Origin: Antedon mediterranea
Taxonomy: Eukaryota > Animalia > Echinodermata
Assembly (NCBI RefSeq): GCF_964355755.1
Contig: NC_092672.1
Span: 12,214,001 to 12,278,000 of the forward strand
DNA: 64,000 nucleotides
Reading direction: 5' to 3'
The position numbers and the translations under genes are program-made. The notes under the pieces were generated by a model that was given only the letters and a program-made list of their open reading frames with translations, searched no databases and was not told the DNA's origin. Below are positions 1,032 to 64,000 of the stretch, one piece after another (within the stretch, counting starts at the first letter, position 1; every line of letters starts with the position of its first letter).

Positions 1032-2229
1032 TTCAGTCGCCATTGTTAAACCTTCCCATCATCTTCGTTTTTCATTTCAAGCACAAGATGGCGCACTACG
1101 ACTAATTAGAATAGTTATAATATAAGTAGGCGTCACTTACTTATCCCTCTACGTTCAAATATCTTCTGAACGATTCAGCCCGCAAGAGGGCTCTATATAA
1201 ATTTGATATACCATATGTACTTTATTCAAAATGGGTTTTTTGTCGCATAGCGTCTTTTTGTCGAATTCTTGAAATCTTTTGATATTCTTTAAACGGATAT
1301 TATTGCAACCTATTCAATAAGCTGGTGATAGCGTCGACAAAGAGGTTAAGCAAACAATGTGAAAGTAAATAATACAGTATCATACATACACATAAATTCT
1401 TACATTGTATTTTTATTACTGTAAGTTCCATTCTATATAGGATTTCAGAAATAATCGGTAAATGACATATCTTACTATTATGTTATGTGATATATTTTGT
1501 CGCAATCCGTATTAATAAACAATGAATAAGTGTGAAACCAAACCTGTTATAAGTTCAATCAGTTCATGGCTAAATAAGCAAAACCAGTTAATACTGTCAC
1601 CCATTCCATGTTTGAATCAATTATTGTGACCGCTATTATGATACAGATAGTATATTGACGCTTTTTAAATTATCAAATAAATAATGACATCACACTTTAT
1701 GTGGCATATTTATTTTCAAATCTAACATTATGCACATTTCTCGACAACATTGAATTTATATAACATAATTTTAGAACAACTGTAGATAATGTATGTCCTG
1801 TCATTAAACAAACATTTACATTTTACACAAAAAGAAGGTGATGCACTGTTGTCTAAATCTTCATTAAAAAAATAATAATTTTTATACAAGCTAGCCTTAG
1901 TTGCTTGTTAACATACTATACTATATATTAAACTATTTTACTACAATAAATCTAGTATTATAACATTACACTATGCAGACATGATATTAATTATATAGTA
2001 AATAATAATAATAATAGGATTATGATTAATTTACCGTACCGAATACCATAGGTATATTCTACAAAAAAAAACATTACTGTAATAAGTTTACAGTTAGCGT
2101 GAGTAAAACAAAAACGCGCATTTTAAACAACACATAGAAAAGCGCATCCAATATCATTGCAAGCAATACCACCAAGTGATAAGGAAATGCTTGTTTCAGA
2201 AATATAAAGTGAAGTGTTTTTAAAAAAAA

Positions 2230-3182: not shown

Positions 3183-3712
3183 CTAAGCATTGTATTCTAA
3201 CTTTTTAGCAGGAACAGTCATGTTATTCTGATTTAAAAATGCAATAAATGATTGCAAGTTATCCTCCTTTAGAATCCCCCTTTGTTCAAGATCTAATATC
3301 ACAGTCCATTGGTTGTTACTTTGTTTTTTTAGAACACTTTTCAAACGGATGAGATCTCTTGTATTTTCTTTCGAAAGTGCGTCACCAAACTGAATTAGGT
3401 GTTGTCGATATGTTGAGAAGGAGGTGATAAACTGGTTGGTTTTATCAAATTTCTCCTTTAAGAGTTTGTTGACCTCCAGAACACCATTTGTACCAGTGAC
3501 ATTAATTGCGTCAACAATAACTTTAACGTTTGTACTGGTAAGATGGCCAGATCGTTTCAATAGGTTGAAGAAACGTATGCAGTCAGCATCCTGCAAATCA
3601 TTGTAAGGTGTTATCAGATCTTTGCATAACACCTTCAGTTTATCAATTGAGCCATGTTCATCATACCAGCTCGATATGTTTACCACGATTTTTTCAAACT
3701 CTTCGGATGATC
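3183..3712 (-). CDS. Terminal exon encoding a tandem death-effector-domain (DED-DED)-like module
   Basis: Acceptor ttttacag|GA. Second half FSTYRQHLIQFGDALSKEN...LDLEQRGILKEDNL resembles the caspase-8/cFLIP DED2 pattern (SxYR..L..I.E.....LD....E....L...L). First half FEKIV..IS....IDKLKVLCKDLI...FFNLLKRSG.L resembles DED1. Judged by eye, no HMM run. Confidence 0.75.
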
Positions 3713-9700: not shown

Positions 9701-12700
9701 CTATTCCTGTCTGTTCTAACTAATAGGTATCCTGGGATTGCAAGTTCACTATTATGTATATTTTGATCTAGCCAGGTTTCACTAATTCCTAAAACATGGA
9801 AACGGCATTCCGAAAGTAAACTCCGAACATGGTCCACCTTATTATAGAGACTTCTGAGATTTAAATGACCAATTTCAAAACCCTTTGTACAATCAATCTC
9901 GCATAATTTGCATAGTATGCCAAAAGCAGGATAAACAATAGAGTCGTTACGTAATTCAGCGTCGTCTACGTCGTTGTCTAAAAGGCTTCCCGTACGATGT
10001 TCGTTTAACAATTGAATTGGTTTAAATGGTTTATTACATGCGTTACAAATAAAATCTAAAATCATCTTATCTACATAAAATACAATACAGATTTAGGACA
10101 TTACAAATTCTTACACATTACCTTTTACATTTAGGTAATTGTTTAAGATCGGAAGTTCTGGATAAAACAACTTTCTCGTTACTGCCAGTGATTATGGTAT
10201 GTATGCGACCATCTTGTGTCCAAACTGCAGATACCACTGATGCATAGTTTTGCTTTACAGTACGTAGTAAACTTGATCTTTTGCTCGTAAGGTTTTCATG
10301 AATGTAGATATGGCTCCCCTTTAATTTTTTCTTTGCTCTATATACTTCATTTCTAACATTATACGAACTAAACTTTACTATTATTCCTCTTGCTCTTCCG
10401 TTTTTCTTAACTTTTGGCCCCAATCTATGACTCCTGTCTATGCATGTTTTATCTACTTCTACGCTTAGCTTTTTCTTAAACAAATCCAAAACTATATTGT
10501 CTGTTATCTCACCTTGTTTCTCTTCTATTCCTTGAATAATCAAACAGTTCCTTCTTGAATATTGTTCTGCTTCATCTAGCTCATATTGTAAGTTATCTAC
10601 CTGTTGTTCTACTTTGCTGAGACGATCTTTAGTATCGTCAAGTTCGAAACGTATTGCTTCAATTGCTGCATCCGTTACAATTTGTGTAATGCTTTCAATC
10701 AGCTGGTGTTTAACAATGCTCACAATTTCCTCGGCTAGGTCATTGAAAATACTCGTATTTCCTTTAATTATATTGGAAATTTCATTTTGTACAGTAATAG
10801 TAAGCGGTTCCACATCAATGACAGGTGCTGTATCAGTGTTCAGTTCGCAACACTCCTTACCACTGTCCTTTTTACCACCTTTCCTTGTATTCTTTCCGGC
10901 CATGATGGTGTATTAATACGTACATGTACAGCAGACAAAAACCGACAAGTAAATGCTAGGCTACAGGAGTGCCCTAACACAACAACTGTCCTGCGGGAAA
11001 TTTGAACTGTCACCGCGTAGTGAGGCTGAATGTAGTGAGGCTAGAGAGAGAGCGATTTAGGACACGTCTGCTCTTAACGACGACTACACTACACTTTTAT
11101 GATGTACAGAGCTGTGTGGTTACCAGGTTTGAGCTACATTCAAAATGGCCGTCGTGCAATCAAAGACGTTATACCAATATGTTTGTTGACCTCAATACCA
11201 TATTATACTTTGTACCTAAAATTATAACTGTAGGTACCGTACTGAAACATTTTGAGCTTGCCATTTTGAAATTCACAATGGCCGCCATGCAATCAAAATG
11301 TTAGTTAAATACCAATATATTTGATGACCCATTACCATATAATTTGCACCTAAAATCAGAGCACTGTGTACCTTTTTAGCAGAGATATACCTGAAAAGTG
11401 AACATTTGGGGTCCGCCATTTTGAAATCCATCATGGCCGCCATGCAATCAAAATTTTAGTTATACCAATATGTTTGTTGACCCCATTACCATAATTATAA
11501 TTTGCACCTAAAATCAGAATTCTAGGTGCCTTTTTAGCAGAGATATACATGAAAAGTGAAAATTTGAAGTCCACCATTTTGAAATCCAACATGGCCGCCA
11601 TGCAATCAAATGTTAATTATACCAATATGTTTGGTGACCCCACTACCATATAATTTGCATTTAAAATCAGAACTCTAGGTGCCTCTTTAGCAGAGATATA
11701 CCTGACAATTGAAAATTTGAGGTCCGCCATTTTGAAATACAAAATGGCGGCTTTACCCTGACCAAATTTTGTGCAACCCTTCCATTTCATATTTTTGACA
11801 CTCTAATGAATAACTGTGCAAAGTTTCAAAATGTTATCACAATTTGAAGGATTTGCCTAAAATTTGCACCTTAACATGCCTACTAATTCAGATTTTCAAG
11901 TTAAAAATTGTAATAAAAATATTGCGCAATATGATGAATACTATCAATTTGAATACATGCATTATTTGGTACACAGTGTATATCGTTTGAACACCATGGA
12001 CATAAACACATTCAATTCACTAGTATCATTCCTATTGTGGTGCGTTGGTATATTAGTTACCTGTATAAATTGGTGATGGCTCCACACTACTTCTGCCTGG
12101 AAATGAAATGATAATAAATGATGTTATATTTTAATATCTTCAAAAGTTGTGTAGATATACTTTATTATCATTACATAAATATTCACGTACATTTGTCACT
12201 GAAAGATATCATTGTTATTTATTTGTAGGTTAAATATGTATATAAGTAAATTACTTATATACTTATAAATATAGTTAGTTGTCATAAAATACATATTTAT
12301 TTTGTCATTAAACACAATATTGATGAATGTGTAATCCCACCTTCCAAAAATAAGCGCTTTAAGCGATCAGTTTTCATCGACTTCTCACCACATGGAACAG
12401 TGCTGTTGTCTTCTTTTAAACACTCTTCCAGATCGTGTAAATGAATGTGCTCTGGATAACAGGCGATACACAACACACGTAGGTTGTAACCAATTCCTTC
12501 ATTAGTTTTCAGCACAGTCTTTAGTTGAAGCTGTAAATAGCTTAGTATCTAAAACAAAAAATACATAATAAATATATTTGAATGAAACGTTTCTTATAAC
12601 TGCATTCAGATAAGCTATTACATTACAATATTAGAATCGTTACCTCAATGCATAAGCTCGGTTTTAGTTCAAATATTTCCTCTGTGTTATTTTCGTCAAC

Positions 12701-15700
12701 TTTAGTTCGACGGGATATTTCAAGCTGTTAAAAAAGATGTATTGATTTGTTGAATTATTTAACATATTCTATCTCACACTGCTTACGTCTACGTATATTC
12801 ATTACTGTACATTTATTTGGTGAATATAATGTATCATTTAATTTTTCAAATCTTTCACAGAATTACAAATACCCGTTGGGCAACCTAGATACCAAAACAT
12901 TAAAAACTGTAAAACAAAATAGCCTCTATATTAATTTAAATTATATTATTATAAAATTATTTGTTGTTTTATTGTCTAAGTTACTTTTATTCTAAGAATC
13001 TTAAATGAATACATATTATTAGAATACATAAATTATGTTGTAATCACAGCTAGTATTATTATCCATCTGTGTAGTCATGATTAGACGTACTTAGCTCTCA
13101 CTACTGCTATAACTGATTGAATGTTTAGGAGTCCAAATTTCTACATGCAGAGAATGATCGGAAATAATTGATAATTTGATATTTGTTTAAAATCTTTCTA
13201 AAGACATGCTAGCTAATCAACAGAAATAATAAATATTCAAATTATGGTAAATAATGAGTTAAATAAATGTTCGTACCTTCAACGCATACTTGTTTTCATT
13301 TTGATGGTCGATTTCCACGGGACCTAAACGAACCTCATGATCTCCAAAGTCAAAATCACTACGATTTTGAAATACAACTGGGTCCCGTCCTCTACCTTTA
13401 AGTTCCACCAGGTTCAGAAATGCAACAACCAATGTATTGTACACAGAATCAGGAAGGAAGTCTGTAGGTGTAAGATAAAGTGATACCTTCTGTTTCTTGT
13501 CCATTTCAACTTTAAGGCTTTCATCCTTAATTTTCATCCGACATGGAACCAGGAACATCCGGTTATCTTCGCTTTCATGCTAATGTAAAATAAGTATTTG
13601 TAGTGTTATGAACAATATAATATATAACATCGAACAATATTACTAAAATTATCTCAGATTTAGTTAAGAGCAAATTTGTTCAACTTACTTCTAATTTCTC
13701 ATAGAGCAAACCAAATGTTTTCATCACTTCAGTAAAAATATCAAAACGATTTGGATCTTCTTCTAATTCTCTTTTCCATAAATGCCGTAGCAATTTTTCC
13801 TCAAGTATCCCTTCCTTGTTAAGCTTTTTCCAAAGATTTCTTAGTTCTTTCTGTTACCAAATAATAGAGAAAAAACTAATGAATAATAACTTATACATGC
13901 ACTATAAAACTGCAATATATTTCATCAAAACAACTAAACAGTTTTATATTCACATTGTTTTGTAACAATTATTTTGTTAACCATATCTACTTACCACTTT
14001 TATAACTGGTCGTTTTACTGTGATCACTTTTGTCACTATTTCAAGCATCATGTAAAGATTTGTTATCACTGTGTTTCTTAATTTCTTGTTAGTACTTGAA
14101 TACATGATAACTCCAATGTCATTCAGATACGCTATGGCAGTAGATAGCCCGTCTTTTGAAATTCCACATTGAGTGCCGATTTTAGATGTCTAATGCAAAT
14201 TAATAAGAAAATAGAGTGTACTGAATTTGATGATTAAGTATTGTTATTTTCTTTTAAAATAATTGTAAAGATTTATTTTTGAATACACATTTTAGAAAGG
14301 GCATTGTCCGGAAGCCCTATTTCTGGTAAAATGTTACTGTTTCATTGCATTTTTAATCGCGTGGACGCGACTCTATAGTTCCCTATGTCGGTCGGTCGGT
14401 CGGTCGGTCTGTCGGTCGGTCCGGTATCACTATGCGTTTTATCGCTTTTCTGTACTTTTTGAACTGTTTTGATGTACAGAAAAGTTTTAAAGTACATTAC
14501 TTTTTGAAAGTTCATTTTTTTCTGAGAGCACGCGACTTATGGCTGTTGGCCTTGTTTATATTTATTTTACGTTATTTTTGTTCATTTTTTTAGGATAGTA
14601 AATAACTTTATTAACATTACGAAATAACCAATTCAATGTTTGATTTTATCAATAATCTGAGTTGTTCATGTTTTGCGAGAACAACTAAAACAAGAAAAAT
14701 AGTACAATAATGATGAAGATTTCCAAATACTAAAAAAATGACAAGACATCTATATTGACTATTGTAATATTAATTCAAATCGCTGGCTGAACAAAGAACT
14801 TGTCAATATTACATTGTAGACAGAAATGTGAACTTCAAATTATGACGTTATACATTATAATTGTTACCGTATAGTACACTATTTTAATAAGATAATAACA
14901 TTTTTTACCAGCGTTCATACTCTATAATGTTTTATGTGTTTACAGACGTTACAACATACAATTCACGGTTATACATTAAAAACCAAAATCTTACTTCAGT
15001 AAAAGTAATACACAGTGTTGTTTTTCCAATTCCTTGCAACTGTTCTTGCAAATCCCCCCATTTTAATGGAATACTTCTCACCATGGCCTTCATGTAACGA
15101 CCAACGTTTCTCCTTAGTTGTTTAATACCTTCATGCGATTTTACAGTGTTATCAACCATGTACATCTCACGATCTACATGATCGGCATATGGCATTCCTT
15201 CCATATTTTCAAACATTTTACGAAACTTATCCTCCACTTCCTTTAATAAAAAGTGTTTTCATAATTACATGCTATAACAACAACAAGAATGTAATTATTC
15301 TTACAAACTGTTATTTCATATTCTGATTTGAATAAGTATAACCGATAATTAAACTTAATACACGATTTAATTTGAGGACCGTAGGCTACGCTATTTATAT
15401 TTCATCACTGTATCGGTTTTAACTAATTCAGCCCTAATATCCTGTCCGTGTATACCACATACCGTTGCAAAATTGTAAGCTTATTTAATGTTAATGTACG
15501 TCTGTTACCTTGATCCAATTTTTTGATTTTGAATTTTTACGAAATGTGTCCATATGTGTAGCAACCAAACAGATAGGAGGTGACTCGATGATCTTGCCAT
15601 CAATTTCAATGGGACTTCCTGGACCATGTTGTTTCACAGTATGTTCATAAATGGACCTTATCCAGAACATATTCATTTCCAAATTAGTCATTCCTAGTAA

Positions 15701-30700: not shown

Positions 30701-33700
30701 CGATAGACCACATTATAACAGTACTGTAAATAATACAACTAGTTGATTTCAATTGGGACGTGGAGAGGTGTTAGCAATGAACATACTTTTGAAAGTATTG
30801 GTATTACCGTCTTTGATAAATAAATAACTTTTTACACAATGAAAATAAATTAAACAAACACAAGGTTTGTTTATACGGGAGCTCATTTAGATTAACTTGT
30901 ATTGCTAACTAAAACGAAATAATAACATTAATAATTGTTTTAATCATTATAAGAGCAATTTACATTGTTTGTTGCTGTGATGAATGCTCCGTGGGCTAGG
31001 AGCCTGTTCAATATCTCTATATTACCACTGCCAACCTGAACGTGTCCATGTAGCGGTGTGTTTCCATCCTGGAAAGAAGAAAGTTAGATTAAACTTGACG
31101 CATTTTTTTTAAAGAATACATAGTATTATATTACATATTTATCCTTTTCTATATTTCATTTTGTAGTTTATTGAGAGTGACTGTAAATCATAAAGAAGAC
31201 ATGGTTTTAAGAAAATAATACAACTTGCTAATTTTAATTATTATAATACAGAAGGGTTAGCAATGAACACATTTTAAAAGTATTGATTTAGCGTATTGTT
31301 CAATCTAAAATGCTACAGCTACACTATTTTTAATATATTTTAAATTATATTTTTGGTTTGATAATAACTATACATTTTTTCCAATGAAAAACACATTAAA
31401 TAAACGAATCTAGGGTTTGTTTATAATGGTAGGTAATTTAGATTAATTTATAGTAACTAAAGCGAATAATTACGTTAATAATTTTTAAATCATTTTAAAA
31501 GAGTAATTTACATTGTTTGTTGCTGTGATTGATGCTCCGTGAGCTATGAGACTGTTCACTATCTCTACATTACCACAACCATGCATAACGTGTGCATCTA
31601 GCGGTGTGGCTCCATGCTGGAAAGAAGAAATTAGATTAAACTTGACGCATTTTTTTAAAGAATACAGGTAGTATTATATTACATATTTATCCTTTTCTAC
31701 ATTCATTTTGTAATTATTTAATAGTGACTGTAAATTATAATAAGGTAATAAGAAAATAAGAAGAAAATAATACAATTTGCTGAGTTTAATTATTATAATA
31801 CAGATGGGTTAGTATTGAACACATTTTAAGAAAATAATAATACAACTTGTACTATACCCTGGAAAGAAGAAAGTTAGATTAAACTTGACGCATTTCTTTT
31901 AAAGAATACAGGTAGTATTATATTACATATTTATCCTTTTCTATATTTCATTTTGTAGTTTATTGAGAGTGACTGTAAATTATAAAGACATGGTTTTAAG
32001 AAAATAATATACTTGCTGATTTTAATTACTATAATACAGAAGGGTTAGCAATGAACACATTTTAAAAGTATTGATTTAGCGTCTTGTTCAATCTAAAATG
32101 CTACAGCTACACTATTTTTAATATATTTTAAATTGTATTTTTGGTTTGATAATAACTATACATTTTTTCCAATGAAAAACACATTAAACGAATCTAGGGT
32201 TTGTTTATAATGGTAGGTAATTTAGATTAATTTATAGTGTTAACTAATGCGAATAATTACGTTAATGATTTTTAAATCATTTTAAAAGAGTAATTTACAT
32301 TGTCTGTTGCTGTGATTGATGCTCCGTGAGCTATGAGCCTGTTCAATATCTCTATATTACCACTGCCAACCTGAACGTGTTCATGTAGCGATGTGTTTCC
32401 ATTCTGGAAAGAAGAAATTAGATTAAACTTGACGCATTTTTTTAAAGAATACAGGTATTATTATATTACATATTTATCCTTTTCTATATTTCATTTTGCA
32501 GTTTATTGAGAGTGACTGTAAATTATAAAGAAGACATGGTTTTAAGAAAATAATACAACTTGCTGATTTTAATTATTATAATACAGAGGGGTTAGCAATG
32601 AAAACATTTTAAAAGTATTGATTTAGCGTCTTGTTCAATCTAAAATGCTACAGCTACACTATTTTTAATATATTTTAAATTGTATTTTTGGTTTGATAAT
32701 AACTATACATTTTTTCCATGAAAAACATATTAAACGAATCTAGGGTTTGTTTATAATGGTAGGTAATTTAGATTAATTTATAGTGTTAACTAATGCGAAT
32801 AATTACGTTAATGATTTTTAAATCATTGTAAGAGTAATTTACATTGTTTGTTGCTGTGATTGATGCTCCGTGAGCTATGAGACTGTTCAATATCTCTACA
32901 TTACCACGGCCAAGCCAAACGTATACATGTAGCGGTGTGTTTCCATCCTGGAAAGAAGAAATTAGATTAAACTTGATACATTTTTTTAAAGAATACAGGT
33001 AGTATTATATTACATATTTATCCTTTTCTACATTCATTTTGTAATTATTTAATAGTGACTGTAAATTATAATAAGGTAATAAGAAAATAAGAAGAAAATA
33101 ATACAATTTGCTGAGTTTAATTATTATAATACAGATGGGTTAGCATTGAACACATTTTAAGAAAATAATAATACAACTTGTACTATACCCTGGAAAGAAG
33201 AAAGTTAGATTAAACTTGACGCATTTTTTTTAAAGAATACAGGTAGTATTATATTACATATTTATCCTTTTCTATATTTCATTTTGTAGTTTATTGAGAG
33301 TGACTGTAAATTATAAAGACATGGTTTTAAGAAAATAATACAACTTGCTGATTTTAATTATTATAATACAGAAGGGTTAGCAATGAATACATTTTAAAAG
33401 TATTAATTTAGCGTCTTGTTCAATCTAAAACGCTACAGCTACACGATTTTCAATATATTTTAAATTGTATTTTTGCTTTGATAATAACTATACATTTTTT
33501 CTACTAAAGAAAAACACAATAAACGAATCTAGAGTTTGCTTATAACGGGGGACAATTTAAATTCACTTGTAATGTTAACTAATACGAATAATTACGTTTC
33601 GATTTTTAAATCATTGTAAAAGAGTAATTTACATTGTTTGTTGCTGTGATTGATGCTCCGTGGGCTATGAGACTGTTCACTATCTCTACATTACCCTGGG

Positions 33701-36700
33701 CAGACCTAAAGTGTGTATGTAGCGGTGTGTTTCCAATCTGAAAAGAAGAAAGTTAGATTAAACTTGACGCATTTTTAAAGAATACAGGTATTATTATATT
33801 ACATATTTATCCTTTTCTATATTCATTTTGTAATTCATTAAGAGTGAATGTAAATTATATAGAAAAATCTAGTATTAAGAAAATAATAAAACTTGTTTAA
33901 AAAGTATTGATTTAGCGTCTTTTTCGATCTAAAACCCTACAGCTACACGATTTTCAATATATTTAAAATTGTATTTTTGCTTTGATAATAACTATATATA
34001 CAATGTTTCCAATGAAAAACACATTAAACGAATCTAGGGTTTGCTTATAACGGGAGATAATTTAAAATGACTTGTATGTTAAGTAATACAAATAATTACG
34101 TTAATGTTTTTTAAATCACTGTCAGTATAAGAGTAATTTACATTGTTTGTTGCTTTGACTGATGCTCCGTAAGCTATGAGATTGTTCACTATCTCTAAAT
34201 TACCACGGCCATACATAACGTGTTCATGTAGCGGTGTGTTTCCATCCTGAAAAGAAGAAAGTTAGTATTATTATATTTCATATTTATTCTTTTCTACATT
34301 CATTTTCTAATTCTAAGAGTGAATGTAAATTATATAGAAATACCTGGTATTAAAAAATGACTAACTGATTTCAATTAAGACATGCAGAGGATTTAGCAAT
34401 GAACATCATTTTGAAAGTATTGATTTTAGCGTCTTATTTAATCTAAAATTCGACAGCTGTACATGATGTTTAAATATCGTAAATTATATGGTGATGGTTA
34501 ATAACTATAAATAATATAATTTATTAAATTAATAAACATATTCCTACGCCTAGACATTTCGTTTAGATTCAAGTAAACTTTCATGAGTACTGAATTTGTA
34601 GATATTAGTCCGGTGGCAGGAGGGGGGAATCACCACCCGAAAGGGGACAAATTGCCATCCAACTTTTCTAGACTCGAATTTTCCGTAGATTACGAATATG
34701 GAAGGTAATCGATCAGGATAGGAAGCGTTTTCGAGATATAAGGGGTCAAAGTTCAAAATTGACCAATTACAACAATGTATTATGTATATGTATTATAACA
34801 AATTTATTGAAGCACAATTTGGTCTTTTATTACATTTTTATGATTATAAGTGTCTATTCAATCACCTTATGAAAAAAAAAATCCTTTGTGATTAAGGGTC
34901 AAATGTCAATATTGACCAATCATAGAACGTACCTATAAAACCAAATAAAAACTAATATTTAATCAAAATTGGATGTTTTCTCATTCTATTAATCAATCAT
35001 ACGCAATGTAAAAGAGCGAATACATCATTTCATCAGTTGACATAAGGTCAATTTCATCAGTTGACATAAGGTCAAACGTCAACATTTTAATACGCGTATT
35101 AGTTAACAAATAAATGCAAAGTTGTCCAAACTAGTATGATATTGATGGTTTTACAAGTAATCAAATTATTTGATTAGTAAAGTTATGTTATTTCATTATA
35201 ATTTTGATTAATATAATTATAATACTGTATTTAATCAAATCAGACTTCGATCAGGATAGGAAGCGAATAGGAAGAGATAAGGGGTCAAAGTTTAAAATTG
35301 ACCAATTATAACAATGTATTATATACATATGTATTATTAACCAGTTTATTAAAGTTCAATTTGGTCTTTTAATATATTTGTATGGTTATAGGTATTGTAT
35401 GGTGTTATTCAGTCGCCTTATAAAACAAATACTTTGCAATTAATGGTCAAATGTCAATATTAACCAATCACACAATTTGCATTTAAAACCAAATAAAAAC
35501 TAACATTTAAGACAAAATGTTATGTTTTATCATTCTGTTAAGACATCTATCAATCATACACAATCAAAAGAGCACATTTATCATTACACAAGTTGACATG
35601 GGTCAAAGGTCAACATTTGAACAAATGATATACTAAATAATGCAACTTTTCAAACTATGAGATCGATGTTCATAAATGTAATCACGTTATTTGATCAGTG
35701 AAGTTATGGTATTTTTATATTTTTTCTAGTGCGCATTATTTTAAATGTATTAATATAATACTGTAAAATAAATAATAAAATTAATATTATGACGATTAAA
35801 ATGTTATGATGTTAAAATGTTGCGCTGACCTTCAATGATTTGCCACTATACAGTTGCATTTATTAGGGCTACAATATTCGTCTTTGGAAAATAAACTACT
35901 ATTCATCAGAACCAGAGAATACAAATTCGTACAGGGTAGGGCATAGGCAGATCCAGGTGGCCAAACTCAATCCACAACTCACTACACAGACAGACCACAA
36001 TTTTTATATAGTTGTGCCCATACAGGAAAGAGTTTCCTGTATACAAAGGATTCTAAAATAACCCATGTGGATTTGCCCGAATGAACCCTCTAAGGACCCT
36101 TTTGGGATCTATATGTGGTGTGCTACATAAGGCCCTGTATTAGAAATTAGTATGGGGTAAATAGTTCATAGATGAACTATGGAATAAAACTAAATGTGCA
36201 CCCTCAATCTTTAAATAACATTTATGGATTTTCCCAAATGAACCCAAGGGCCGATCCTTCATGGACCTTTCGGGGTTCTCTATGTGGGGCTACAAGAAAC
36301 CCTATATTGGAAATAATGTATGTGGGGTGAAAATGTGGGTTCATAGAGATATAATAAATCCCTGTGCACCCTCGATCATCCATAAGGAATATTTTATGGA
36401 TTTGCCCAAATTAACCCAAGGGCCGGTCGTTCTCCATGGATGGACATTAAGCCCCATAATGGAAATATAAGGGGTGACACTGTGAGTTCATATAGACAGG
36501 CGTGGCCCATGAATTAAGCTGCCTGTGCACTCTCGATCCTTAAGAAAAATTTATGGATTTGCCCAAATTAACCAAAGGGCCGGTCCTCCATGGACATTAA
36601 GCCCCATAATGGATATTAATGGATGACACTGTGGGTTTATATAGACAGGCACAACCATGGAATAAAGCTGCCTGTGCACTCTCGATCCTTAAGGAACACT

Positions 36701-39700: not shown

Positions 39701-42700
39701 GGCCTAATACGATTCCATCTTCCTTTTTCTAGTTATAATATTCCTACCTAGTCTTAGTTTAGTCACAATGTGTCTATGTTTCTAATTTTAATTAAGTATT
39801 CTTCCATAATTCCAACATAATTTATATTGAATGCGTGTGAAATATTGGAGTTTATAGAGAGTGTATTAACCTATTATCTCATAGAATTGTGTCGTTCAAT
39901 AAGCCTCGCCTTTGTTTAAATTTTGAAATAAAAAATATTGTTGACCTGTTGAGCATGCCATGTTGCCAAATCCATTTATAGGCCTACATAATAAGTTTTA
40001 CATCATTCACCCAATTCGCTCATTTTGTTACGCTTTTCTATGTTGAAAATCGTAAAATTGTTTAATGATTTTTTTATAATCTATTTGGCTTACTCTCAGC
40101 CACTAACGAATTCAATTAATGATACTTTGAGTTTGGATAGGGAATTTTCGATATTCTCCTCTCACTGCATCACTTGGTGCAAAATTTTCTATTCCTAAAA
40201 GATATTTTTATTCTAAAATCAAAATATAATCCAAGTGGTATGAAGACATTGTTCATCTGCTGGAAAACTACAAGTCAGTCGATGCTACAAACTACAAGGG
40301 TTCGGAGAAGTCAAGCAGGCAGAAATGCATTATATCTCAGATGCTAGTGAAGTAGTATGTGGTCAATGCATGTATTTAAGATTGATGCCCTCATGATAAT
40401 ATTTCTTCTATTTCGATATCAAGTGTATGTAGCTAACCGGGTATACAGCAAATCAACGATGTACCTTCCATAGAAAACATCTTCTAATCCGAGTGATATA
40501 GTCAGTAGAGCCGTGCGTGCTAACAGTAAGCAATTGATTTGAGATACCGGATGGGTGAGTAGTTCTACACTTCTTCACCAGGTAGTTCTTAACAAACAAA
40601 GGCGGTTGGCCGAAATCGATGACGAATCGCGTATAACGTTGTTGCTTCAGAACTAAAATATATTCGCTCATTCCACACTAATGTTGACAAAGTTACTTCA
40701 GAATGGGTTTATGACAGATAAAATGAACTATAAATCACATTAAATGTATTGAATGTTCATTCCCCTTAGAGGAACCAACACGTAGTAAGGCATATTTTTT
40801 AGATATGCCTATCAAAGGTAAACTTAACAGTGATACAAAACACATGCAATAATTTAATATGAAAAGATTGGTGTAAATATTGCGAGGAGCCATGTACCGG
40901 CAGTATGTGTAACTGAGTTAATGATTATGTAATTGTTGTTGAAGATTATGCTCATCGGGAATAATTTGCATAAAATACCATGTTAGCCTACGTATATTAG
41001 AAATCTCACTAGCTAGTGTAGTTAGTTGAGACGATGCTATCGTCAGCTGCACGATTTTTAATATATTTTAAATTGTAGTTTTGCTTTGATAATAATTGAT
41101 TTTAATTATTATAATACAGAAGGGTTAGCAATGAACACATTTTAAAAATACTACTTTAGGCTCTTGTTCAATCTAAAACGCTACAGCTACACAATTTTTA
41201 ATATATTTTAAATTGTATTTTTCCTTTGATAATAACTATACACTTTTCCAAAGAAAAACACATTAAACAAATCTAGGATTTGCTTATAACGGGAGATAAT
41301 TCAAATAATTACGCTATGGATTTTTAAATAATTGTATAAGAGTAATTTACAATGTTTGTTGCTGTGACTGAGGCTCCGTTGGCTATGAGACTGTTGACTA
41401 TCTTTACATTATTCCTGCCAGACTCAAGGTGTTCATGTAGCGGTGTGTATCCATCCTGGAAAGAAGAAAGTTAGTATTATTATATTTCATATTTTTCTTT
41501 TCTACATTCATTTTCTAATTCATTAAGAGGGAATATAAATTATATAGAAATACCTGGTATTAAGAAAATAATGACTAACTGATTTCAATTAAGACATGCA
41601 GATTATTTAGCAATGATCATCAACAGCGTCTTGTTTAATCGAAAATTCGACAGCTGTACATGATGTTTAAATATCGTAAATTATATGGTGATGGTTAATA
41701 ACTTTAAATAATATAATTTATTAAATTAATAAACATATTCCTACGCCTAGACATCTCGTTTAGATTCAAGTAAACTTTAATGAATACTGAATTTGTAGAT
41801 CTGTATGTATTACCAAACCACCTTCAAAACATAATTGCAAATTCCAACAATACACTCTACGGTGAATTCTATAAATATTTTGTTATATTATTAATCTACT
41901 ATCCATCCCACCTTCATCCTACAATGAAAAAAAAAGTTACGTAATTCGTTTCTCCCATTTGCTATGAGGCTTTTGAATGCAAGCTATGTGTATGTATCGA
42001 GTTATATGACATTTGCCTTTTTATTATATTTGATGCATTTGTATTTTATCCTATAGGTGTCGTACTGTCTGTATTTTACCAATTTTGTTTTAACTACTAC
42101 GAATAATATCGTTAATGATTTTAAATAATAGTAAATCTCTTTCAACGCTACCAAACTGTATCAATAAAGTGTCGTACTGTCTGTATTTTACCAATTTTAT
42201 CATATGAAAAGATTGGTGTAAATATTGCAAGGAGTCATGTAACGGCAGTATATATTATATAATTCGCTGTCAGATGATACTTCACACTTGAAGTATCTAG
42301 GCATGATGAAGTGACCCCTAGACTTGACCTTAGCAATAAAATAAACTAAAGTGACTGATATGAAACACAGACTCTGTAACAAAAAAATAATATTTGTATT
42401 TGTAAAAAAATAAAAGAAACGTTTAATTATAACTCAAAAACCATTGTCTGACAGACAATTTAAGTATTGTTTGCTTTAAATTACATTTTTTCAGGTAAAA
42501 TAACTATTATGTGACAATAAAATGACACATATTCAAACACAAATTTGAAATAAAAAATATTTTTCAGAGGGACAATATATCTTTAAAACTGTTACGTCAA
42601 TAAGCGAGCAGCGTTTTTTGTAAGAAATATTTCTTGTAGATATGCCTATCAATGGTAAGCTTAACAGTGATATAAGACAACAAAACACATACAATAATTT

Positions 42701-43397
42701 AATATAAAAAGATTGGTGTAACTATTGCAAGGAGCCATGTAACGGCAGTATGTGTAACTGAGTTAATGATTATGTAATTGTTGTTGAAGATAAAAACCAT
42801 GTTAGCCTACGTATATTAGAAATCTCACTAGCTAGTGTAGTTAGTTGAGACGATTCATCGTTATTAAATGTATGTTATGTCATACTATTATACAAAAAAT
42901 TATCTCCATTGTGGCATGATTACACGCAATCTGTCTTTCTATTACGTTTTATCTCAACTCAAAGAAGTGGCAAGTGAGACCGTAGTTATAGTATAGAGTA
43001 GATTGTCTGTTTGTTATTGGTTCTTAGTAATGTTGTCATACATTATATAAACGTTTTCGTGTTTTTCACCCTTGAGGTTACCGTAAACATGGTGATTATT
43101 TATATCATATTCAAATTCAAATAAATATAGTTTCTATACCTTATCTACAGAGTTCACAAGATGTGGATATGTTTTACATATTTCTTCAATTTCTTCCAAA
43201 TCTCCATATCTTACAGTTCTTAGCAATACGTTTCTGGAAATAAAGAAGATAAAAATGAATCATGGCAAGAATACTCGGTCGATGATGTTAATATGTTTAT
43301 TTGTCATGTTTCTAAACAATAATAAATACAATTTTCTTTGAACTATTTAACATATTATACGTTTGTTGGATATAAAATATAAAGCTTACTTTGGCAT
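3183..43397 (-). CDS. Multi-exon ROCO-family gene: ANK repeats - Roc - COR - tandem DED (~1359 aa, 27 coding exons, no kinase)
   Basis: Hand-spliced exons in transcript order (+ coordinates): 43390-43397, 43140-43233, 41351-41455, 34142-34246, 33633-33737, 32843-32947, 32299-32403, 31512-31616, 30964-31068, 30076-30183, 27900-27984, 27523-27679, 26276-26379, 25712-25882, 25385-25537, 22273-22440, 21635-21849, 21129-21254, 15509-15703, 14995-15240, 13995-14189, 13689-13850, 13277-13579, 12644-12724, 12341-12548, 12061-12096, 3183-3712. All junctions are GT-AG, phases are compatible, total is 4080 nt with no internal stop. Motifs: TPLH ankyrins; PVEILARG; P-loop GKEGAGKTS; STDGI; WDYAGQ; LVATHMD; COR IPLKW/YLNDIGVIMY/FLVP; tandem DED. 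Small exons could be missed, and there is no transcript support. Confidence 0.85.
4693..5830 (-). pseudogene. Frameshifted C-terminal fragment of Academ protein (left arm)
   Basis: ORF pieces 5592-5825 (LDG.AII..L...SKTF; RLDL.F.....SLKSGTRSNR), 5151-5456 (EEADERMF) and 4693-5154 (P.NWG; Cys8). Confidence 0.75.
5924..6838 (+). pseudogene. Inverted second copy of the same Academ C-terminal fragment (right arm)
   Basis: Reverse complement of ~4740-5695, with deletions. ORF 6106-6384 reads EEADERMFFHVKHAA...VKTVDSDVVVI. Confidence 0.75.
7063..10065 (-). pseudogene. LINE ORF2 (AP endonuclease + reverse transcriptase), split by two frameshifts
   Basis: APE motifs HLNLRSL, ISETWL, GGGVAIY, VYRPP, VGDLN, PTR, IDLIF, SDH. 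RT motifs NYRPIS, NQSGFR, FLDLKKAFDTVDH, GVPQGSILGPLLF. One extra base breaks YADD (ctc ta[a]t gca gac gac, ~7902). A second frameshift lies near 9200. Confidence 0.92.
10118..10903 (-). CDS. LINE ORF1 protein (coiled-coil + L1-type RRM/CTD)
   Basis: Intact 261 aa with EQYSRRNCLIIQGI, IDRSHRLG, R.IIVKF, IYIHENLT and VWTQDGRI motifs, directly upstream of ORF2. Confidence 0.88.
   Translation of the reverse strand: MAGKNTRKGGKKDSGKECCELNTDTAPVIDVEPLTITVQNEISNIIKGNTSIFNDLAEEIVSIVKHQLIESITQIVTDAAIEAIRFELDDTKDRLSKVEQQVDNLQYELDEAEQYSRRNCLIIQGIEEKQGEITDNIVLDLFKKKLSVEVDKTCIDRSHRLGPKVKKNGRARGIIVKFSSYNVRNEVYRAKKKLKGSHIYIHENLTSKRSSLLRTVKQNYASVVSAVWTQDGRIHTIITGSNEKVVLSRTSDLKQLPKCKR
12341..15240 (-). CDS. 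COR-domain exons of the ROCO gene (14995-15240, 13995-14189, 13689-13850, 13277-13579, 12644-12724, 12341-12548)
   Basis: IPLKW...; AIAYLNDIGVIMY...V; LWKKL..EGILEEKLL.HLW; MKTFGLL; FLVPC; FLPDSVYNTLVV. These are typical COR-A/B motifs following Roc. Confidence 0.8.
14351..14557 (+). mobile_element. Short non-autonomous Helentron/HINE (DINE-1-like) element
   Basis: ttttaatcgcgtggacgcgactctata 5' palindrome, (GTCG)n microsatellite, subterminal cacgcgact, and ggccttgttt 3' end in T-rich flanks. Confidence 0.7.
15509..27679 (-). CDS. Roc GTPase-domain exons (G1 27523-27679; G2 26276-26379; G3 21635-21849; 21129-21254; G4 15509-15703) with a long low-complexity insertion
   Basis: SRCMFLGKEGAGKTSCVKAMLG; PSTDGI; TIWDYAGQLDYYITHR|FFLTNRVSYCVAFN; MFWIRSI...PPICLVATHMD. 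Confidence 0.9.
15866..19446. mobile_element. Non-autonomous PIF/Harbinger-like TIR element (~3.6 kb), probably with nested sequence
   Basis: TIR cgcccgtattcttaaacc.gactttagtcgtagt / actacgactaaagtccggtttaagaatacgggcg, flanked by TAA on both sides. No convincing ORF. Confidence 0.75.
19610..21013. mobile_element. Non-autonomous Academ-type element with long TIRs
   Basis: TAGTCCATGGG...CCCATGGACTA termini, 3-bp TSD TTA, TIRs of several hundred bp, and internal repeats of the arm sequence. Confidence 0.75.
23812..25376 (+). mobile_element. Non-autonomous Helentron-like element
   Basis: Starts aactagaatttaattcgtcactttgacgaatt (hairpin) followed by ataggtgat. Ends aataggtgatcattt...aaatgatcgcctaat (hairpin reusing the subterminal repeat). 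Confidence 0.55.
26390..27170. repeat. Intronic ~410-bp tandem duplication containing (CAT)n-rich microsatellite
   Basis: aatgaactccaaaaggt occurs at ~26393 and ~26801, and the following sequence stays collinear in both copies. Confidence 0.8.
28960..29098 (+). mobile_element. 3' end fragment of an L2-type LINE or related SINE
   Basis: tgtaaagcgcatt...aatgcgctatat stem-loop followed by a (TTA)n tail. Confidence 0.5.
29195..29852 (-). mobile_element. Non-autonomous Helitron
   Basis: Minus strand begins A|TC (29852) and ends gcggagcacgggttgctgCTAG|T (29195). This gives TC...CTAG termini inserted between A and T. Confidence 0.6.
30076..30183 (-). CDS. Ankyrin exon A8: KGNTPLHEHVRTGTSGNIEIVNSLIAHGASLKARNK
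   Basis: 108 nt, phase 0-0, ttccag| ... |gtaccg. Confidence 0.9.
30964..31068 (-). CDS. Ankyrin exon A7: DGNTPLHGHVQVGSGNIEILNRLLAHGAFITATNN
   Basis: 105 nt, phase 0-0, canonical splice sites. Confidence 0.9.
31512..31616 (-). CDS. Ankyrin exon A6: HGATPLDAHVMHGCGNVEIVNSLIAHGASITATNN
   Basis: 105 nt, phase 0-0. Confidence 0.9.
32299..32403 (-). CDS. Ankyrin exon A5: NGNTSLHEHVQVGSGNIEILNRLIAHGASITATDN
   Basis: 105 nt, phase 0-0. Confidence 0.9.
32843..32947 (-). CDS. Ankyrin exon A4: DGNTPLHVYVWLGRGNVEILNSLIAHGASITATNN
   Basis: 105 nt, phase 0-0. Confidence 0.9.
33633..33737 (-). CDS. Ankyrin exon A3: IGNTPLHTHFRSAQGNVEIVNSLIAHGASITATNN
   Basis: 105 nt, phase 0-0. Confidence 0.9.
34142..34246 (-). 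CDS. Ankyrin exon A2: DGNTPLHEHVMYGRGNLEIVNNLIAYGASVKATNN
   Basis: 105 nt, phase 0-0. Confidence 0.9.
34606..38178. mobile_element. Non-autonomous Academ-type element inside the ankyrin array, with an internal ~120-bp tandem repeat (~36050-37250)
   Basis: TAGTCCGGTGGCAGGAGGGG...CCTCCTGCCACCGGACTA termini, ~160-bp TIR, 3-bp TSD TAT. The duplicated intron at ~41795-41810 shows the empty site. Confidence 0.8.
38363..38769. mobile_element. Solo LTR (407 bp, 5-bp TSD GCAAG)
   Basis: TG...CA termini. Empty site ttttgaatGCAAGctatgtg at ~41971-41990. Confidence 0.75.
40230..40390 (+). mobile_element. Decayed BEL/Pao retrotransposon pol (RNase H) fragment
   Basis: Translates EMHYISDASEVVCGQCMYLRL, matching the BEL/Pao ELH.FSDAS..GYG.C.YLR motif. 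Confidence 0.55.
41351..41455 (-). CDS. Ankyrin exon A1: DGYTPLHEHLESGRNNVKIVNSLIANGASVTATNI
   Basis: 105 nt, phase 0-0. Flanking introns are homologous to those of A2. Confidence 0.88.
43140..43397 (-). CDS. First coding exons: MPK|NVLLRTVRYGDLEEIEEICKTYPHLVNSVDK (ankyrin N-cap)
   Basis: Exons 43390-43488 (ATG at 43397, preceded in frame by TAA) and 43140-43233. The sequence fits an N-capping ankyrin (L...V..GDLE.I......P.LVN..DK) and joins A1 in phase 0. Confidence 0.7.
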
Positions 43398-59880: not shown

Positions 59881-59919
59881 GTTTGTTTCAAAAGTCAAGT
59901 GAAGTGTTTTAATTAATAA

Positions 59920-63827: not shown

Positions 63828-64000
63828 CTGTTAAAAAAGATGTATTGATTTGTTGAATTATTTAACATATTCTATCTCACACTGCTTACGTCTACGTATA
63901 TTCATTACTGTACATTTATTTGGTGAATATAATGTATCATTTAATTTTTAGAATCTTTCAGAGAATTACAAATACCCGTTGGGCAACCTAGATACCAAAA

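Follow-up and report, generated by a model that had tools for sequence, protein, structure and literature searches.

In DAPK1, a Roc-COR unit is preceded by ankyrin repeats and followed by a death-fold module; this death domain acts chiefly in regulation and docking. The available text of PMC4104024 counts DAPK1 among the ROCO proteins, and the members of the ROCO family are listed in the accessible portion of PMC3995007. The available sections of Civiero et al. (2014, PMC4104024) report 17 or more ROCO genes from Trichoplax, bearing CARD and death domains, and, as far as the accessible text of the sources goes, kinase-less ROCOs with death-fold tails have been published from Trichoplax (PMC4104024) and Aplysia (PMC9334734). 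Roc-COR has been proposed, in the available part of Kaur et al. (2021, PMC8195603), as a switch that links a rapidly evolving sensor made of repeats to an effector or adaptor position that varies, and the accessible sections of Teng et al. (2024, PMC11378527) describe brown-algal LRR-ROCO candidate immune receptors in which each repeat has an exon to itself, with signs of exon shuffling and diversifying selection. ROCOs that lack a kinase and end in a death fold have been described before, as has the notion of Roc-COR as a switch of NLR type. A sequence-only reading of the locus described here was overstated where it proposed Roc-COR in place of NACHT, an idea published in the parts available of PMC8195603 and PMC11378527.

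Results

The window, a stretch of 64,000 nucleotides from Antedon mediterranea contig NC_092672.1, carries on its minus strand, from 43397 to 3183, a gene whose independent rebuild gave 27 exons and a single open frame of 1359 aa (CDS 4080 nt), with a predicted start ATG at 43397, a stop codon at 3183-3185 and introns that are all GT...AG. The exons, the coordinates and the ~1359-aa frame of the sequence-only reading were thereby reproduced exactly. Read in frame, the spliced CDS contains no internal stop, whereas its two alternative frames contain 108 and 132, and 1359 stop-free codons would be expected by chance with a probability of ~1e-48 at the local base composition. An N-cap is followed by 8 one-repeat ankyrin exons, Roc, COR and a 175-aa last exon (Table 1), and full-length ANK, Roc, COR and DED architectures are also present in the paralogue models P0006 and P0008; P0006 likewise starts ~9 aa ahead of the capping helix encoded by exon 2. 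Domain searches found no kinase families in the exons or in the full-length paralogue P0006, and no NACHT or NB-ARC; together with the rebuilt frame, they agree with the kinase-less order of ankyrin repeats, Roc-COR and tandem death effector domain (tDED) read earlier from the DNA. A second gene copy begins at 61354 within the window.

Table 1. Features of the rebuilt gene, with positions in the window
Feature	Position	Strand	Remark
Whole gene: 27 coding exons, ANK x8 + Roc + COR + tandem DED	3183..43397	-	
Exon 1: predicted start codon + 5 nt, GTAAGC donor	43390..43397	-	Phase fits exon 2
Exon 2: N-terminal capping helix pair of ankyrin array, residues 3-34	43140..43233	-	Resembles P0006 N-terminus
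Exon 3: ankyrin repeat 1, 105 nt, phase 0-0	41351..41455	-	Pfam Ank 23.0 bits
Exon 4: ankyrin repeat 2	34142..34246	-	Pfam Ank 28.0 bits
Exon 5: ankyrin repeat 3	33633..33737	-	Pfam Ank 27.0 bits
Exon 6: ankyrin repeat 4	32843..32947	-	Pfam Ank 32.6 bits
Exon 7: ankyrin repeat 5	32299..32403	-	Pfam Ank 21.7 bits
Exon 8: ankyrin repeat 6	31512..31616	-	Pfam Ank 20.4 bits, slightly below the 21.1 cut-off
Exon 9: ankyrin repeat 7	30964..31068	-	Pfam Ank 24.6 bits
Exon 10: ankyrin repeat 8, 108 nt	30076..30183	-	Pfam Ank 24.5 bits; 97% identity to P0002 16-50
Exon 11: C-terminal ankyrin cap + linker	27900..27984	-	P0002 residues 51-78, 86% identity
Exon 12: pre-Roc linker + Roc G1 P-loop	27523..27679	-	Not in NCBI model
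Exon 13: Roc switch I region	26276..26379	-	P0002 residues 131-165, 97% identity
Exons 14-16 (25712-25882, 25385-25537, 22273-22440): most of Roc insert	22273..25882	-	
Exon 17: insert end + Roc G3	21635..21849	-	
Exon 18: Roc core	21129..21254	-	
Exon 19: Roc G4	15509..15703	-	
Exons 20-22 (14995-15240, 13995-14189, 13689-13850): Roc end + COR-A	13689..15240	-	COR-A also partial on single exons
Exons 23-25 (13277-13579, 12644-12724, 12341-12548): COR-B-like region	12341..13579	-	
Exon 26: 36-nt micro-exon, linker ahead of tDED	12061..12096	-	
Exon 27: tandem death effector domain, residues 1185-1359, + stop codon	3183..3712	-	

The NCBI protein P0001 corresponds to the last 798 aa of the predicted product and matches the last 12 exons of our model letter for letter, starting at a Met within exon 16 (22372) and therefore lacking the ankyrin and P-loop exons. 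This start, and the N-terminally short paralogue models P0003 and P0004, would fit a model that is in part an artefact, in which the ankyrin and P-loop exons are remnants or part of a different transcript and the product is the 798-aa protein, or in which the gene is a decaying paralogue; we hold this to be very improbable. The 15 extra exons (538 codons) have canonical splice sites and phases that match, and they stay free of stops, which would occur by chance with a probability of ~1e-19 at the local base composition; each of them aligns to paralogue P0002 or P0006, and single exons are 60-97% identical to P0002. The short NCBI models seem to be errors of annotation: an ankyrin exon, read in a different frame, matches residues 1-15 of P0002, and the first residues of P0004 match an intron-derived part of the open frame immediately before exon 13. 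A protein begun at 22372 would moreover be left without G1 and switch I. A weak hint of a transcript comes from a contig of run X1, which is RNA by guess only and was compared over a stretch including the adjoining intron: it matches 27523-27644, and its agreement with the genome stops at 27523, precisely where the P-loop exon has its predicted donor.

Each ankyrin repeat occupies its own phase-0 exon, and 7 of the 8 repeat exons pass the Pfam Ank cut-off (21.1 bits). The sequence-only reading had called the array variable, and the repeats do differ mostly by amino-acid-changing substitutions, with a dN/dS among the 8 exons of 2.27, a ratio that, taken across repeats within one protein, is no clean selection test. 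It reaches 5.77 for the 'hypervariable' codons, a partition picked after inspection of the data. Variability is enriched (permutation p = 0.00125) at the six positions chosen for randomisation in designed ankyrin binders, as we presume these positions to map onto the repeats of this gene.

In the Roc region, G1 (GKEGAGKT, residues 379-386), G3 (DYAGQ, 654-658) and G4 (THMD, 757-760) are present in the sequence, whereas G2, the remaining motif of the G1-G4 set claimed earlier, is a guess, placed at the Thr of STDGI (403-407). Between switch I and G3 lies an insert of 217 aa, rich in Ser, Lys, Glu and Thr, which is probably disordered judging from the model of P0002, where the part homologous to insert exons 14-16 has pLDDT < 50. 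On P0001, the Pfam Roc profile scores 19 bits, below its 27-bit cut-off, and COR-B gives no match at E<=0.01; COR-A reaches 57.9 bits against a cut-off of 35.3 on residues 270-426 (831-987 of our model), in support of the COR domain that had been placed after Roc. The linker and P-loop of paralogue P0010, the counterpart of exon 12, align to M. barkeri Roco2, and P0010 matches M. barkeri Roco, C. tepidum Roco and LRRK2 by sequence. When the AF2 model of P0002, which is 74% identical to P0001, was searched with Foldseek, the best 40 ranks were all ROCO structures, including LRRK2 (8fo9_A, E 9e-14), and the fold matched the entire COR of C. tepidum Roco (3dpt, TMt 0.71). These models show a predicted Roc-COR fold of the LRRK2 type, as taken from paralogue P0002 and not from the gene's own full protein.

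The last exon is, in its predicted fold, a true tandem DED. Its AF2 model has a pLDDT of 91 and a pTM of 0.86, and the best VIA match is the caspase-8 tDED (Z 17.2, rmsd 2.6 A, 165 aligned residues). Tandem DEDs (caspase-8, cFLIP, vFLIP and MC159; Z 12.5-17.2, residues 3-175) fill the first 20 rows of the VIA list, in which single death-fold domains stay at Z <= 7.2. Comparison by Foldseek, a check suggested with the original interpretation, likewise supported the tandem-DED fold. By sequence, the profile of the tDED family matches the caspase-8 tDED over both DEDs (E 1.5e-5), and the caspase-8/cFLIP-like identity first assigned to this exon holds; Pfam DED scores 31.5-31.8 bits, below the curated cut-off of 35.9. 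The E-x-R-x-I-L stretch of DED2 aligns with its caspase-8 counterpart, and the R-x-D-L stretch of caspase-8 DED1 is not conserved in DED1 of this gene.

Matches to the Roc-COR unit are crinoid in 28 of 32 cases (14 Antedon and 14 Anneissia) and show the gene to be a member of a crinoid-only, lineage-specific expansion. This expansion is tandemly arrayed, with 10 members on the 38.96-Mb contig that carries the gene, and its C-terminal modules differ (tDED/DED, Death, HEPN_DZIP3, ZU5); the tails thus include a HEPN RNase-type domain. In paralogue P0005 the first tDED is followed by ZU5 and another tDED. Cluster matches to the tDED module number 147, and 29 of the 30 looked up are crinoid, showing a crinoid-restricted adaptor family whose module also stands at the front of NACHT-LRR receptors and of RIG-I-like, Rel, TIR and caspase-8-like proteins. 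Among 44 long tDED matches, 22 have NACHT, 3 have Roc/COR, and one each has a caspase, RIG-I-like helicase, Rel homology, TIR, ZU5 or UCH domain; Antedon P0187 is a canonical tDED caspase-8-like protein. Outside crinoids, brittle-star P0249 has COR-A fused directly to a caspase domain, and Mytilus P0031 and P0032 combine ANK, Roc, COR-A and Death, their relation to the gene family being remote (E ~1e-7, 23-24% identity). In the Atlas, Death occurs in 56-63% of the members of mollusc Roc-COR clusters, and CARD in 26% of those of a sponge cluster.

Discussion

Our analysis gives roughly even odds (about 0.5) that this intact 27-exon gene of Antedon mediterranea encodes a kinase-less ROCO serving as a GTPase-based, NLR-like switch in immunity or cell death. 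As judged from sequence, the NLR-like reading is plausible because the tDED is common to immune-type proteins and because the crinoid Roc-COR expansion has varied tails. The ankyrin array, whose repeats vary mainly at the predicted binding surface, would recognise a ligand or a host protein that it guards, and binding would shift Roc to another nucleotide state and change the dimerisation or oligomerisation mediated by COR. Clustered tDEDs could then seed DED assemblies with the tDED caspase-8-like protease of the species or with other tDED proteins, and such assemblies may lead to death or NF-kB-type signalling. We found no description of Roc-COR combined with a tDED in the literature searched, in line with the earlier statement that characterised animal ROCOs have no tandem DED; of the first interpretation as a whole, the tDED, the domain order and the lack of a prior Roc-COR-tDED report stand, whereas the switch idea was already in print.

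Signalling could also run in the opposite direction, with the tDED taking the input and bringing the protein to tDED platforms of crinoid NLRs, RIG-I-like helicases or caspase-8; there it would serve as a scaffold under GTP control or would modulate DED filaments in the manner of FLIP, while the ankyrin array would hold downstream cytoskeletal or trafficking partners, as in DAPK1 and LRRK2. Tail-first signalling is consistent with the same data as the explanation that we prefer, and several observations suit it: the tDED has no catalytic partner domain, like the cFLIP/vFLIP-type regulators that are among the best fold matches of the last exon; the ZU5 and second tDED of P0005 form a typical scaffold layout; the DAPK1 death domain offers a precedent for docking; and tDED-only crinoid proteins are numerous (e.g., 172-227 aa), so that a layered adaptor network is likely. 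We nevertheless regard it as unlikely. Repeats diversified by non-synonymous change beside an NTPase switch are the usual signature of a sensing end, and the tail is the variable position of the family, like the effector or adaptor ends of bacterial Roc-COR proteins in the available text of PMC8195603.

A non-immune role as a DAPK1-like housekeeping or developmental regulator (in apoptosis, autophagy or regeneration) would take the expansion as a matter of crinoid biology, such as arm regeneration. The order of ankyrin repeats, Roc-COR and death fold is indeed that of DAPK1 minus the kinase, but we consider such a role distinctly improbable given the lineage-specific, tandemly arrayed expansion (with the copy at 61354 and 10 members on one contig), swappable tails with an RNase-type domain among them, an adaptor common to NLR, RLR, TIR and Rel proteins, and a dN/dS above 1 among the repeat exons.

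Compared with DAPK1, which is linked to cell death, the crinoid protein shares the ankyrin repeats before Roc-COR and the death fold after COR. Unlike DAPK1, it has no kinase or calmodulin-binding segment, its frame starting 34 aa before the first ankyrin repeat, and it ends in a tandem DED instead of a single death domain; it also has the 217-aa Roc insert and belongs to a multi-copy crinoid expansion. With the kinase-less invertebrate ROCOs it has in common the logic of repeat domain, Roc-COR and death-fold domain, but those proteins carry a single Death or CARD domain, whereas the crinoid gene has a caspase-8-type tandem DED of a crinoid-specific subfamily. With caspase-8, cFLIP, KSHV vFLIP and MC159 it shares two death-effector domains in the same rigid packing, at 13-20% identity between the tDEDs; theirs lies N-terminal to a caspase or caspase-like domain, and that of this gene C-terminal to a GTPase.

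Animal NLRs show the same tripartite design of repeat sensor, NTPase switch and death-fold adaptor, and crinoid tDED-NACHT-LRR proteins (e.g., P0034, P0054 and P0099) even draw their adaptor from the tDED family of this gene (E 2e-91 to 1e-12 against the last exon). The switch here is, however, a Ras-like Roc GTPase with COR and not a STAND ATPase, the tDED stands at the C-terminus, which reverses the order, and the repeats are ankyrin rather than LRR. The placing of Roc-COR between repeats and effector or adaptor recalls the prokaryotic LRR-AP-GTPase(Roc)-COR counter-invader proteins, as presented in the available text of Kaur, Iyer, Burroughs, Aravind (2021), and the phase-0 exon for each ankyrin repeat recalls the one exon per repeat of brown-algal LRR-ROCOs in the accessible part of their description. 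In contrast to both, the crinoid protein has ankyrin repeats and not LRR, and an animal death-fold adaptor and not an enzymatic effector.

Results

Used as a query, the last exon of the gene matched NCBI protein P0001 (798 aa, 'uncharacterized protein', Antedon mediterranea) at 100% identity, together with six paralogues. P0001, which is the product of the last 12 exons in the window, maps exactly to 12 minus-strand exons from 22372 to 3183, and the model was extended upstream from open frames and splice sites. The outcome is a gene of 27 exons, with introns that are all GT...AG and a CDS of 4080 nt (ATG at 43397, stop at 3183-3185); our independent rebuild thus gives the same single open frame of 1359 aa that the sequence-only reading had drawn. 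The spliced CDS has no internal stops in frame, versus 108 and 132 in the other two frames, and lies in AT-rich animal DNA (GC 0.28-0.37 across the window). With the local composition, 1359 codons would stay open by chance with a probability of about 1e-48, and the 538 codons absent from the NCBI model with one of about 1e-19. Each upstream exon aligns with one of two crinoid ROCO paralogues, P0002 (60-97% identity) or P0006. The model is least certain at its first coding exon, which has 8 nt. The features of the protein and of the surrounding DNA are collected in the table.

Features of the ROCO protein and of the surrounding DNA (residues refer to the 1359-aa product; positions refer to the window)
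Feature	Residues	Position	Strand	Remarks
N-terminal cap	1-34
Eight ankyrin repeats	35-315			one exon each, 105 nt (last 108 nt), phase 0-0
C-terminal ankyrin cap	316-343
Pre-Roc linker	344-378
Roc G1, GKEGAGKT	379-386			read directly
Insert in Roc, 217 aa	about 431-647	21635-25882		between switch I and G3; exons 14-17
Roc G3, DYAGQ	654-658			read directly
Roc G4, THMD	757-760			read directly
COR-A	831-987			P0001 residues 270-426; Pfam 57.9 vs cut-off 35.3 bits
COR-B-like region				after COR-A, then 12-aa micro-exon linker
Tandem DED	1185-1359			last exon
154-nt (approx.) repeat array		3872-4518		4.3 copies; 86-88% matches; flanks LINE in last intron
LINE-type retroelement		7066-10912	minus	inside last intron; Exo_endo_phos E 9e-17, RVT_1 E 2e-25
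154-nt (approx.) repeat array		11260-11748		3.1 copies; 86-88% matches; flanks LINE in last intron
Separate 149-nt array		36361-36997
MULE transposase-like open frame		48767-49198	minus	between two ROCO genes; E 1e-8
Minisatellite, 63 nt		51222-52400		18.6 copies
FLYWCH zinc finger open frame, transposase-like		52567-53283	minus	between two ROCO genes; E 1e-10
Minisatellite, 39 nt		59025-59880		21.9 copies; 98% matches
Minisatellite, 34 nt		59913-60601		20.3 copies
Second paralogue, 3' end		61354-61905, about 62082-62132, 63403-63651, 63744-63830	minus

That the long model is an artefact, or the gene a decaying copy, seems to us very improbable, as it is the short NCBI models of the family that look like annotation failures. 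Several of them (P0002, P0003 and P0004, all crinoid paralogues) have first residues that come from an intron or from the wrong frame of an ankyrin exon: in P0002, residues 1-15 align out of frame to an ankyrin exon (32902-32946 in the window, for comparison), and the start of P0004 corresponds to an intron-derived stretch of open frame directly before exon 13. Because of such starts, the annotated N-termini of this family are unreliable. Read contigs over 27100-34300 cover introns as well as exons in all four sequencing runs, which therefore behave like DNA, and no exon-exon junction was found among the 15 joints listed of 32, so that these data speak neither for nor against the ankyrin-to-Roc junctions. 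Among the runs recorded as RNA, none was found to cover the locus. One contig of run X1, which is RNA only by guess, matches 27523-27644, and its break coincides with the donor predicted for the P-loop exon; its remaining 159 letters do not continue into the adjoining intron, though this intron was included in the comparison, and the break is no more than a weak transcript hint. The ORF list shows no kinase exon upstream of 43397, the two MULE/FLYWCH-type frames scanned there being transposase-like, and the only plus-strand frames seen within introns were repeat- or transposon-derived. No Rfam family reached the gathering score within the window.

Behind its N-terminal cap the protein has the proposed ankyrin array, which Pfam Ank recovers as tandem repeats of the 33-aa type. 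The repeats are 35-36 aa long, the splice-site flanks of their exons are near-identical, and seven of the eight exons pass the Pfam cut-off (the eighth scores 20.4 vs 21.1 bits). Among the eight repeat exons, dN/dS (Nei-Gojobori) is 2.27 overall, a comparison between repeats within one protein that does not amount to a formal test of selection. The ratio rises to 5.77 at positions 1 and 8-15 vs 1.32 elsewhere, a partition picked after viewing the data. At six positions chosen a priori, those randomised in designed ankyrin binders, there are on average 4.0 residue types vs 1.97 elsewhere (permutation p = 0.00125). The pattern of variation is as a diversifying binding surface would give. Symmetric exons of one repeat each also allow duplication, shuffling and exon skipping, and such behaviour is reported for the LRR exons of brown-algal ROCOs (PMC11378527).

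On its sequence, the gene is a member of the ROCO family. The expected Roc GTPase and COR-A are present, as the G1, G3 and G4 motifs can be read and COR-A stands above its Pfam cut-off. The Roc domain is split by a low-complexity insert rich in Ser, Lys, Glu and Thr; the part of P0002 homologous to it has a pLDDT below 50 in the AlphaFold2 (AF2) model, and by eye the matching stretch of P0006 looks clearly shorter. Pfam Roc scores 41.2 bits on P0002 (cut-off 27) vs only 19 on P0001, which has no P-loop. In another paralogue, P0010, the pre-Roc linker and P-loop align with Methanosarcina barkeri Roco2, and the sequence matches that protein (E 1.8e-8), Chlorobaculum tepidum Roco and the Roc of LRRK2. 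COR-B is the dimerisation half of COR, and Pfam COR-B was not reported on P0001 at E<=0.01. P0002 is 74% identical to P0001 over their common part, and its AF2 model (mean pLDDT 67; 70-90 outside the insert) gives alignments of 520-590 columns with LRRK2, LRRK1 and C. tepidum Roc-COR. ROCO structures occupy all of the top 40 places in its Foldseek list (LRRK2, 8fo9_A, E 9e-14; LRRK1), with a TMt of 0.62 for C. tepidum RocCOR (3dpu) and of 0.71 for the COR entry 3dpt, followed by the tandem DEDs (tDEDs) of caspase-8 and cFLIP for its tail (TMt 0.72-0.73). Since the model aligns to Roc-COR structures, the COR fold is predicted to be present in P0002, as known from this paralogue's model alone. 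A PDB search with P0006 was dominated by ankyrin matches and uninformative on Roc-COR.

At the other end of the protein, the last exon scores 31.5-31.8 bits with Pfam DED, short of the curated cut-off of 35.9, and the match covers the first DED alone; the same family is found at E<=0.01 in 26 of the 33 members of the tDED family (best 5.4e-15). As a single-sequence search of the PDB gave chance-level matches alone (best E 0.26, EB3), a profile was needed for the tail. An exhaustive phmmer search with the last exon returned 147 clusters at E<=1e-3, of which 102 reached E<=1e-10; with few exceptions, the match spans the entire unit of 160-170 aa. The profile of the 33 members (alignment A1) matches the tDED of caspase-8 (E 1.5e-5; profile positions 10-175, caspase-8 residues 3-170) and both DEDs of cFLIP (about 1e-3). 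AlphaFold2 on A1 gives an all-helical model (pLDDT 91, pTM 0.86) whose listed Foldseek matches are all tandem DEDs (caspase-8, cFLIP, KSHV vFLIP and MC159) at a TMq of 0.61-0.71, with the exception of two domain-swapped caspase-8 entries near 0.5. VIA-align superposes 165 of 175 residues on the caspase-8 tDED (Z 17.2, rmsd 2.6 A); its best 20 rows are tDEDs (Z 12.5-17.2) and single death-fold domains follow at Z 7.2 or lower. In a language-model atlas the last exon adjoins DED and v-FLIP-like clusters (scores 0.91-0.93). A charged motif of the R-x-D-L type is a hallmark of DEDs; in the alignment of A1 with caspase-8, the E-x-R-x-I-L of DED2 is kept and the R-x-D-L of caspase-8 DED1 faces non-matching residues. 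Because the profile and the fold matches of the model all give a tandem DED, the last exon is predicted to fold as the death-fold pair that had been read from it, and the objection that it might not be one falls away.

In the protein databases, from which all gene counts were taken, the Roc-COR-tDED part of P0002 had 32 matches: 14 from Antedon, 14 from Anneissia japonica, the other sequenced feather star, one further, and three from Mytilus that are remote (E about 1e-7) and have an ANK-Roc-COR-Death architecture. The crinoid family has either ankyrin repeats or nothing at the N-terminus, and a variable module at the C-terminus. This is a tDED in P0001-P0008, P0014, P0018, P0021 and P0024 (in P0005, as tDED-ZU5-tDED), a single Death domain in P0025 and HEPN_DZIP3 in P0019; none was detected in P0009, P0010, P0011 and P0020. 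For P0006 and P0008 there are models of full length, with ANK+Roc+COR+DED. As the 3' end of a second copy also lies in the window, ROCO genes are tandemly arrayed. This paralogue has a tDED exon (61354-61905) 93% identical to that of the gene studied, a micro-exon and COR exons, one of them at 63403-63651, and its last intron measures about 0.2 kb vs 8.3 kb in the gene studied. Much of the long intron is made up by the LINE, which is split over four overlapping open frames and is thus probably decayed, and the consensus units of the two arrays that flank it look related. The 39-nt minisatellite is open for about 300 codons in several frames, an effect of the repeat and not a gene.

The tDED itself belongs to a wider crinoid set, with 29 of the 30 tDED clusters looked up coming from the two crinoids. 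A profile search found 210 full modules in 166 proteins, up to five of them in tandem. According to a Pfam scan of 44 long members, 22 carry NACHT, mostly with an N-terminal tDED and often with LRRs, three carry Roc/COR, and single members carry a caspase (P0045, 'caspase-8-like'), a RIG-I-like helicase (P0098), Rel homology (P0127), TIR (P0065), ZU5 (P0129) or UCH (P0138); OTU also occurs in one NACHT protein (P0105). Antedon has a canonical tDED-Death-caspase protein, P0187 (DED 112.5 bits), the tDED of which is 25% identical to the last exon of the gene studied. In Antedon P0127, the crinoid module stands ahead of the NF-kB-type Rel homology domain; for a Rel protein, such an N-terminal tDED seems unusual. 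In Anneissia, P0098 has a tDED ahead of its helicase, in place of the CARDs of vertebrate RIG-I, and P0034 has five in tandem ahead of NACHT-LRR. COR-A is joined directly to a caspase domain in P0249, from the brittle star Amphiura filiformis, and in Antedon P0166 TAZ and KIX domains (CBP/p300-type) are joined to COR-A and a C-terminal tDED; each could be either a real fusion or a merged gene model. A FastTree phylogeny of 202 modules places the tDED of the gene studied in a starred clade of ten rows, eight of them from ROCO proteins. The ROCO label changes at least 11 times on this tree, a count on which we do not build because of the many partial gene models among the rows and of long branches that meet.

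Discussion

The analysis shows an open frame, the order of its domains, their folds, and that the gene belongs to two crinoid expansions. From them we infer, at a probability of about 0.5, a route from ankyrin through Roc-COR to tDED that ends in death or NF-kB-type signalling. First, the ankyrin array would bind a ligand or a guarded protein. Second, Roc-COR would change its nucleotide and oligomer state. Third, clustered tDEDs would seed DED assemblies with the caspase-8-like protease or with other tDED proteins, and the outcome would be death or NF-kB-type signalling. The main rival to this route, which we consider unlikely, reverses its direction: the protein would dock through its tDED and serve as a scaffold or as a FLIP-like modulator.

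The ankyrin to tDED route may be part of something larger. It is a tentative proposal, to which we give distinctly less credence than to the route itself, that the whole cytosolic innate-immune network of crinoids is wired around one divergent tDED adaptor, carried by at least a dozen ROCOs as well as by NACHT-LRR, RIG-I-like, Rel/NF-kB and TIR proteins, deubiquitinases and a caspase-8-like protease. These ROCOs, with their hypervariable ankyrin arrays of one exon per repeat, would then form a second class of cytosolic immune receptors in animals, based on a GTPase and seeding tDED filaments, with Roc-COR replacing the STAND ATPase. The crinoid tDED network illustrates how a single adaptor can be shuffled across sensors, transcription factors and proteases. 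Our results suggest that the immune receptors of animals, like those of bacteria and brown algae, may employ Roc-COR in place of STAND ATPases.

Roc-COR is the module mutated in LRRK2 Parkinson's disease and its cellular job is still debated; we know of no function for most kinase-less ROCOs. With a caspase-8-type tDED as its sole output module, a ROCO of this kind offers a simple read-out, in which the nucleotide state and dimerisation of Roc-COR can be set against DED filaments and caspase activation. A smaller but concrete gain is practical, as the truncated N-termini of the NCBI models can be corrected for the gene studied and several paralogues.

DAPK1 has a comparable layout of ankyrin repeats, Roc and COR with a death-fold tail. 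The kinase and calmodulin-regulated segment of DAPK1 are absent here, as 34 aa of the frame precede the first ankyrin repeat and neither the exon scan nor the full-length paralogues P0006 and P0008 showed a kinase family; whereas DAPK1 ends in a single death domain, our protein ends in a tandem DED. Without kinase and without single death domain, the gene is not a DAPK1 orthologue, and a non-immune role like that of DAPK1 appears to us quite improbable, more so than the reversed direction. Nor is it an NLR, since it has no STAND ATPase: NACHT/NB-ARC had no match in any exon or in P0001 and its paralogues P0002, P0005 and P0006. The interpretation given by the sequence-only reading is supported in part, and at most the protein may be NLR-like in its working.

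The architecture also has relatives. Published passages describe at least 17 ROCO genes in Trichoplax, some with CARD or death domains (PMC4104024), and ROCO modules on TIR and MyD88-like proteins of Aplysia (PMC9334734), and the atlas has Roc-COR-Death/CARD clusters in molluscs and a sponge. Kaur et al. 2021 (PMC8195603) describe for bacteria, and note for animals, Roc-COR ('AP-GTPase') as a switch that parallels STAND NTPases and has variable effector positions. In amphioxus and sea urchin, DED is known to be combined with NACHT, from a paper that makes no mention of Roc (PMC2575513). Roc-COR with DED or tDED, or a crinoid tDED network, was not found in openly licensed PMC papers and bioRxiv, though the source data behind the figures of PMC8195603 might include architectures of this kind. 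Kinase-less invertebrate ROCOs with a death-fold tail were already published, and the gene studied is one of these. What distinguishes it is a tandem DED of the caspase-8 type, an ankyrin array of one exon per repeat, and an adaptor common to the NLR, RLR, Rel and caspase-8 repertoire of crinoids.
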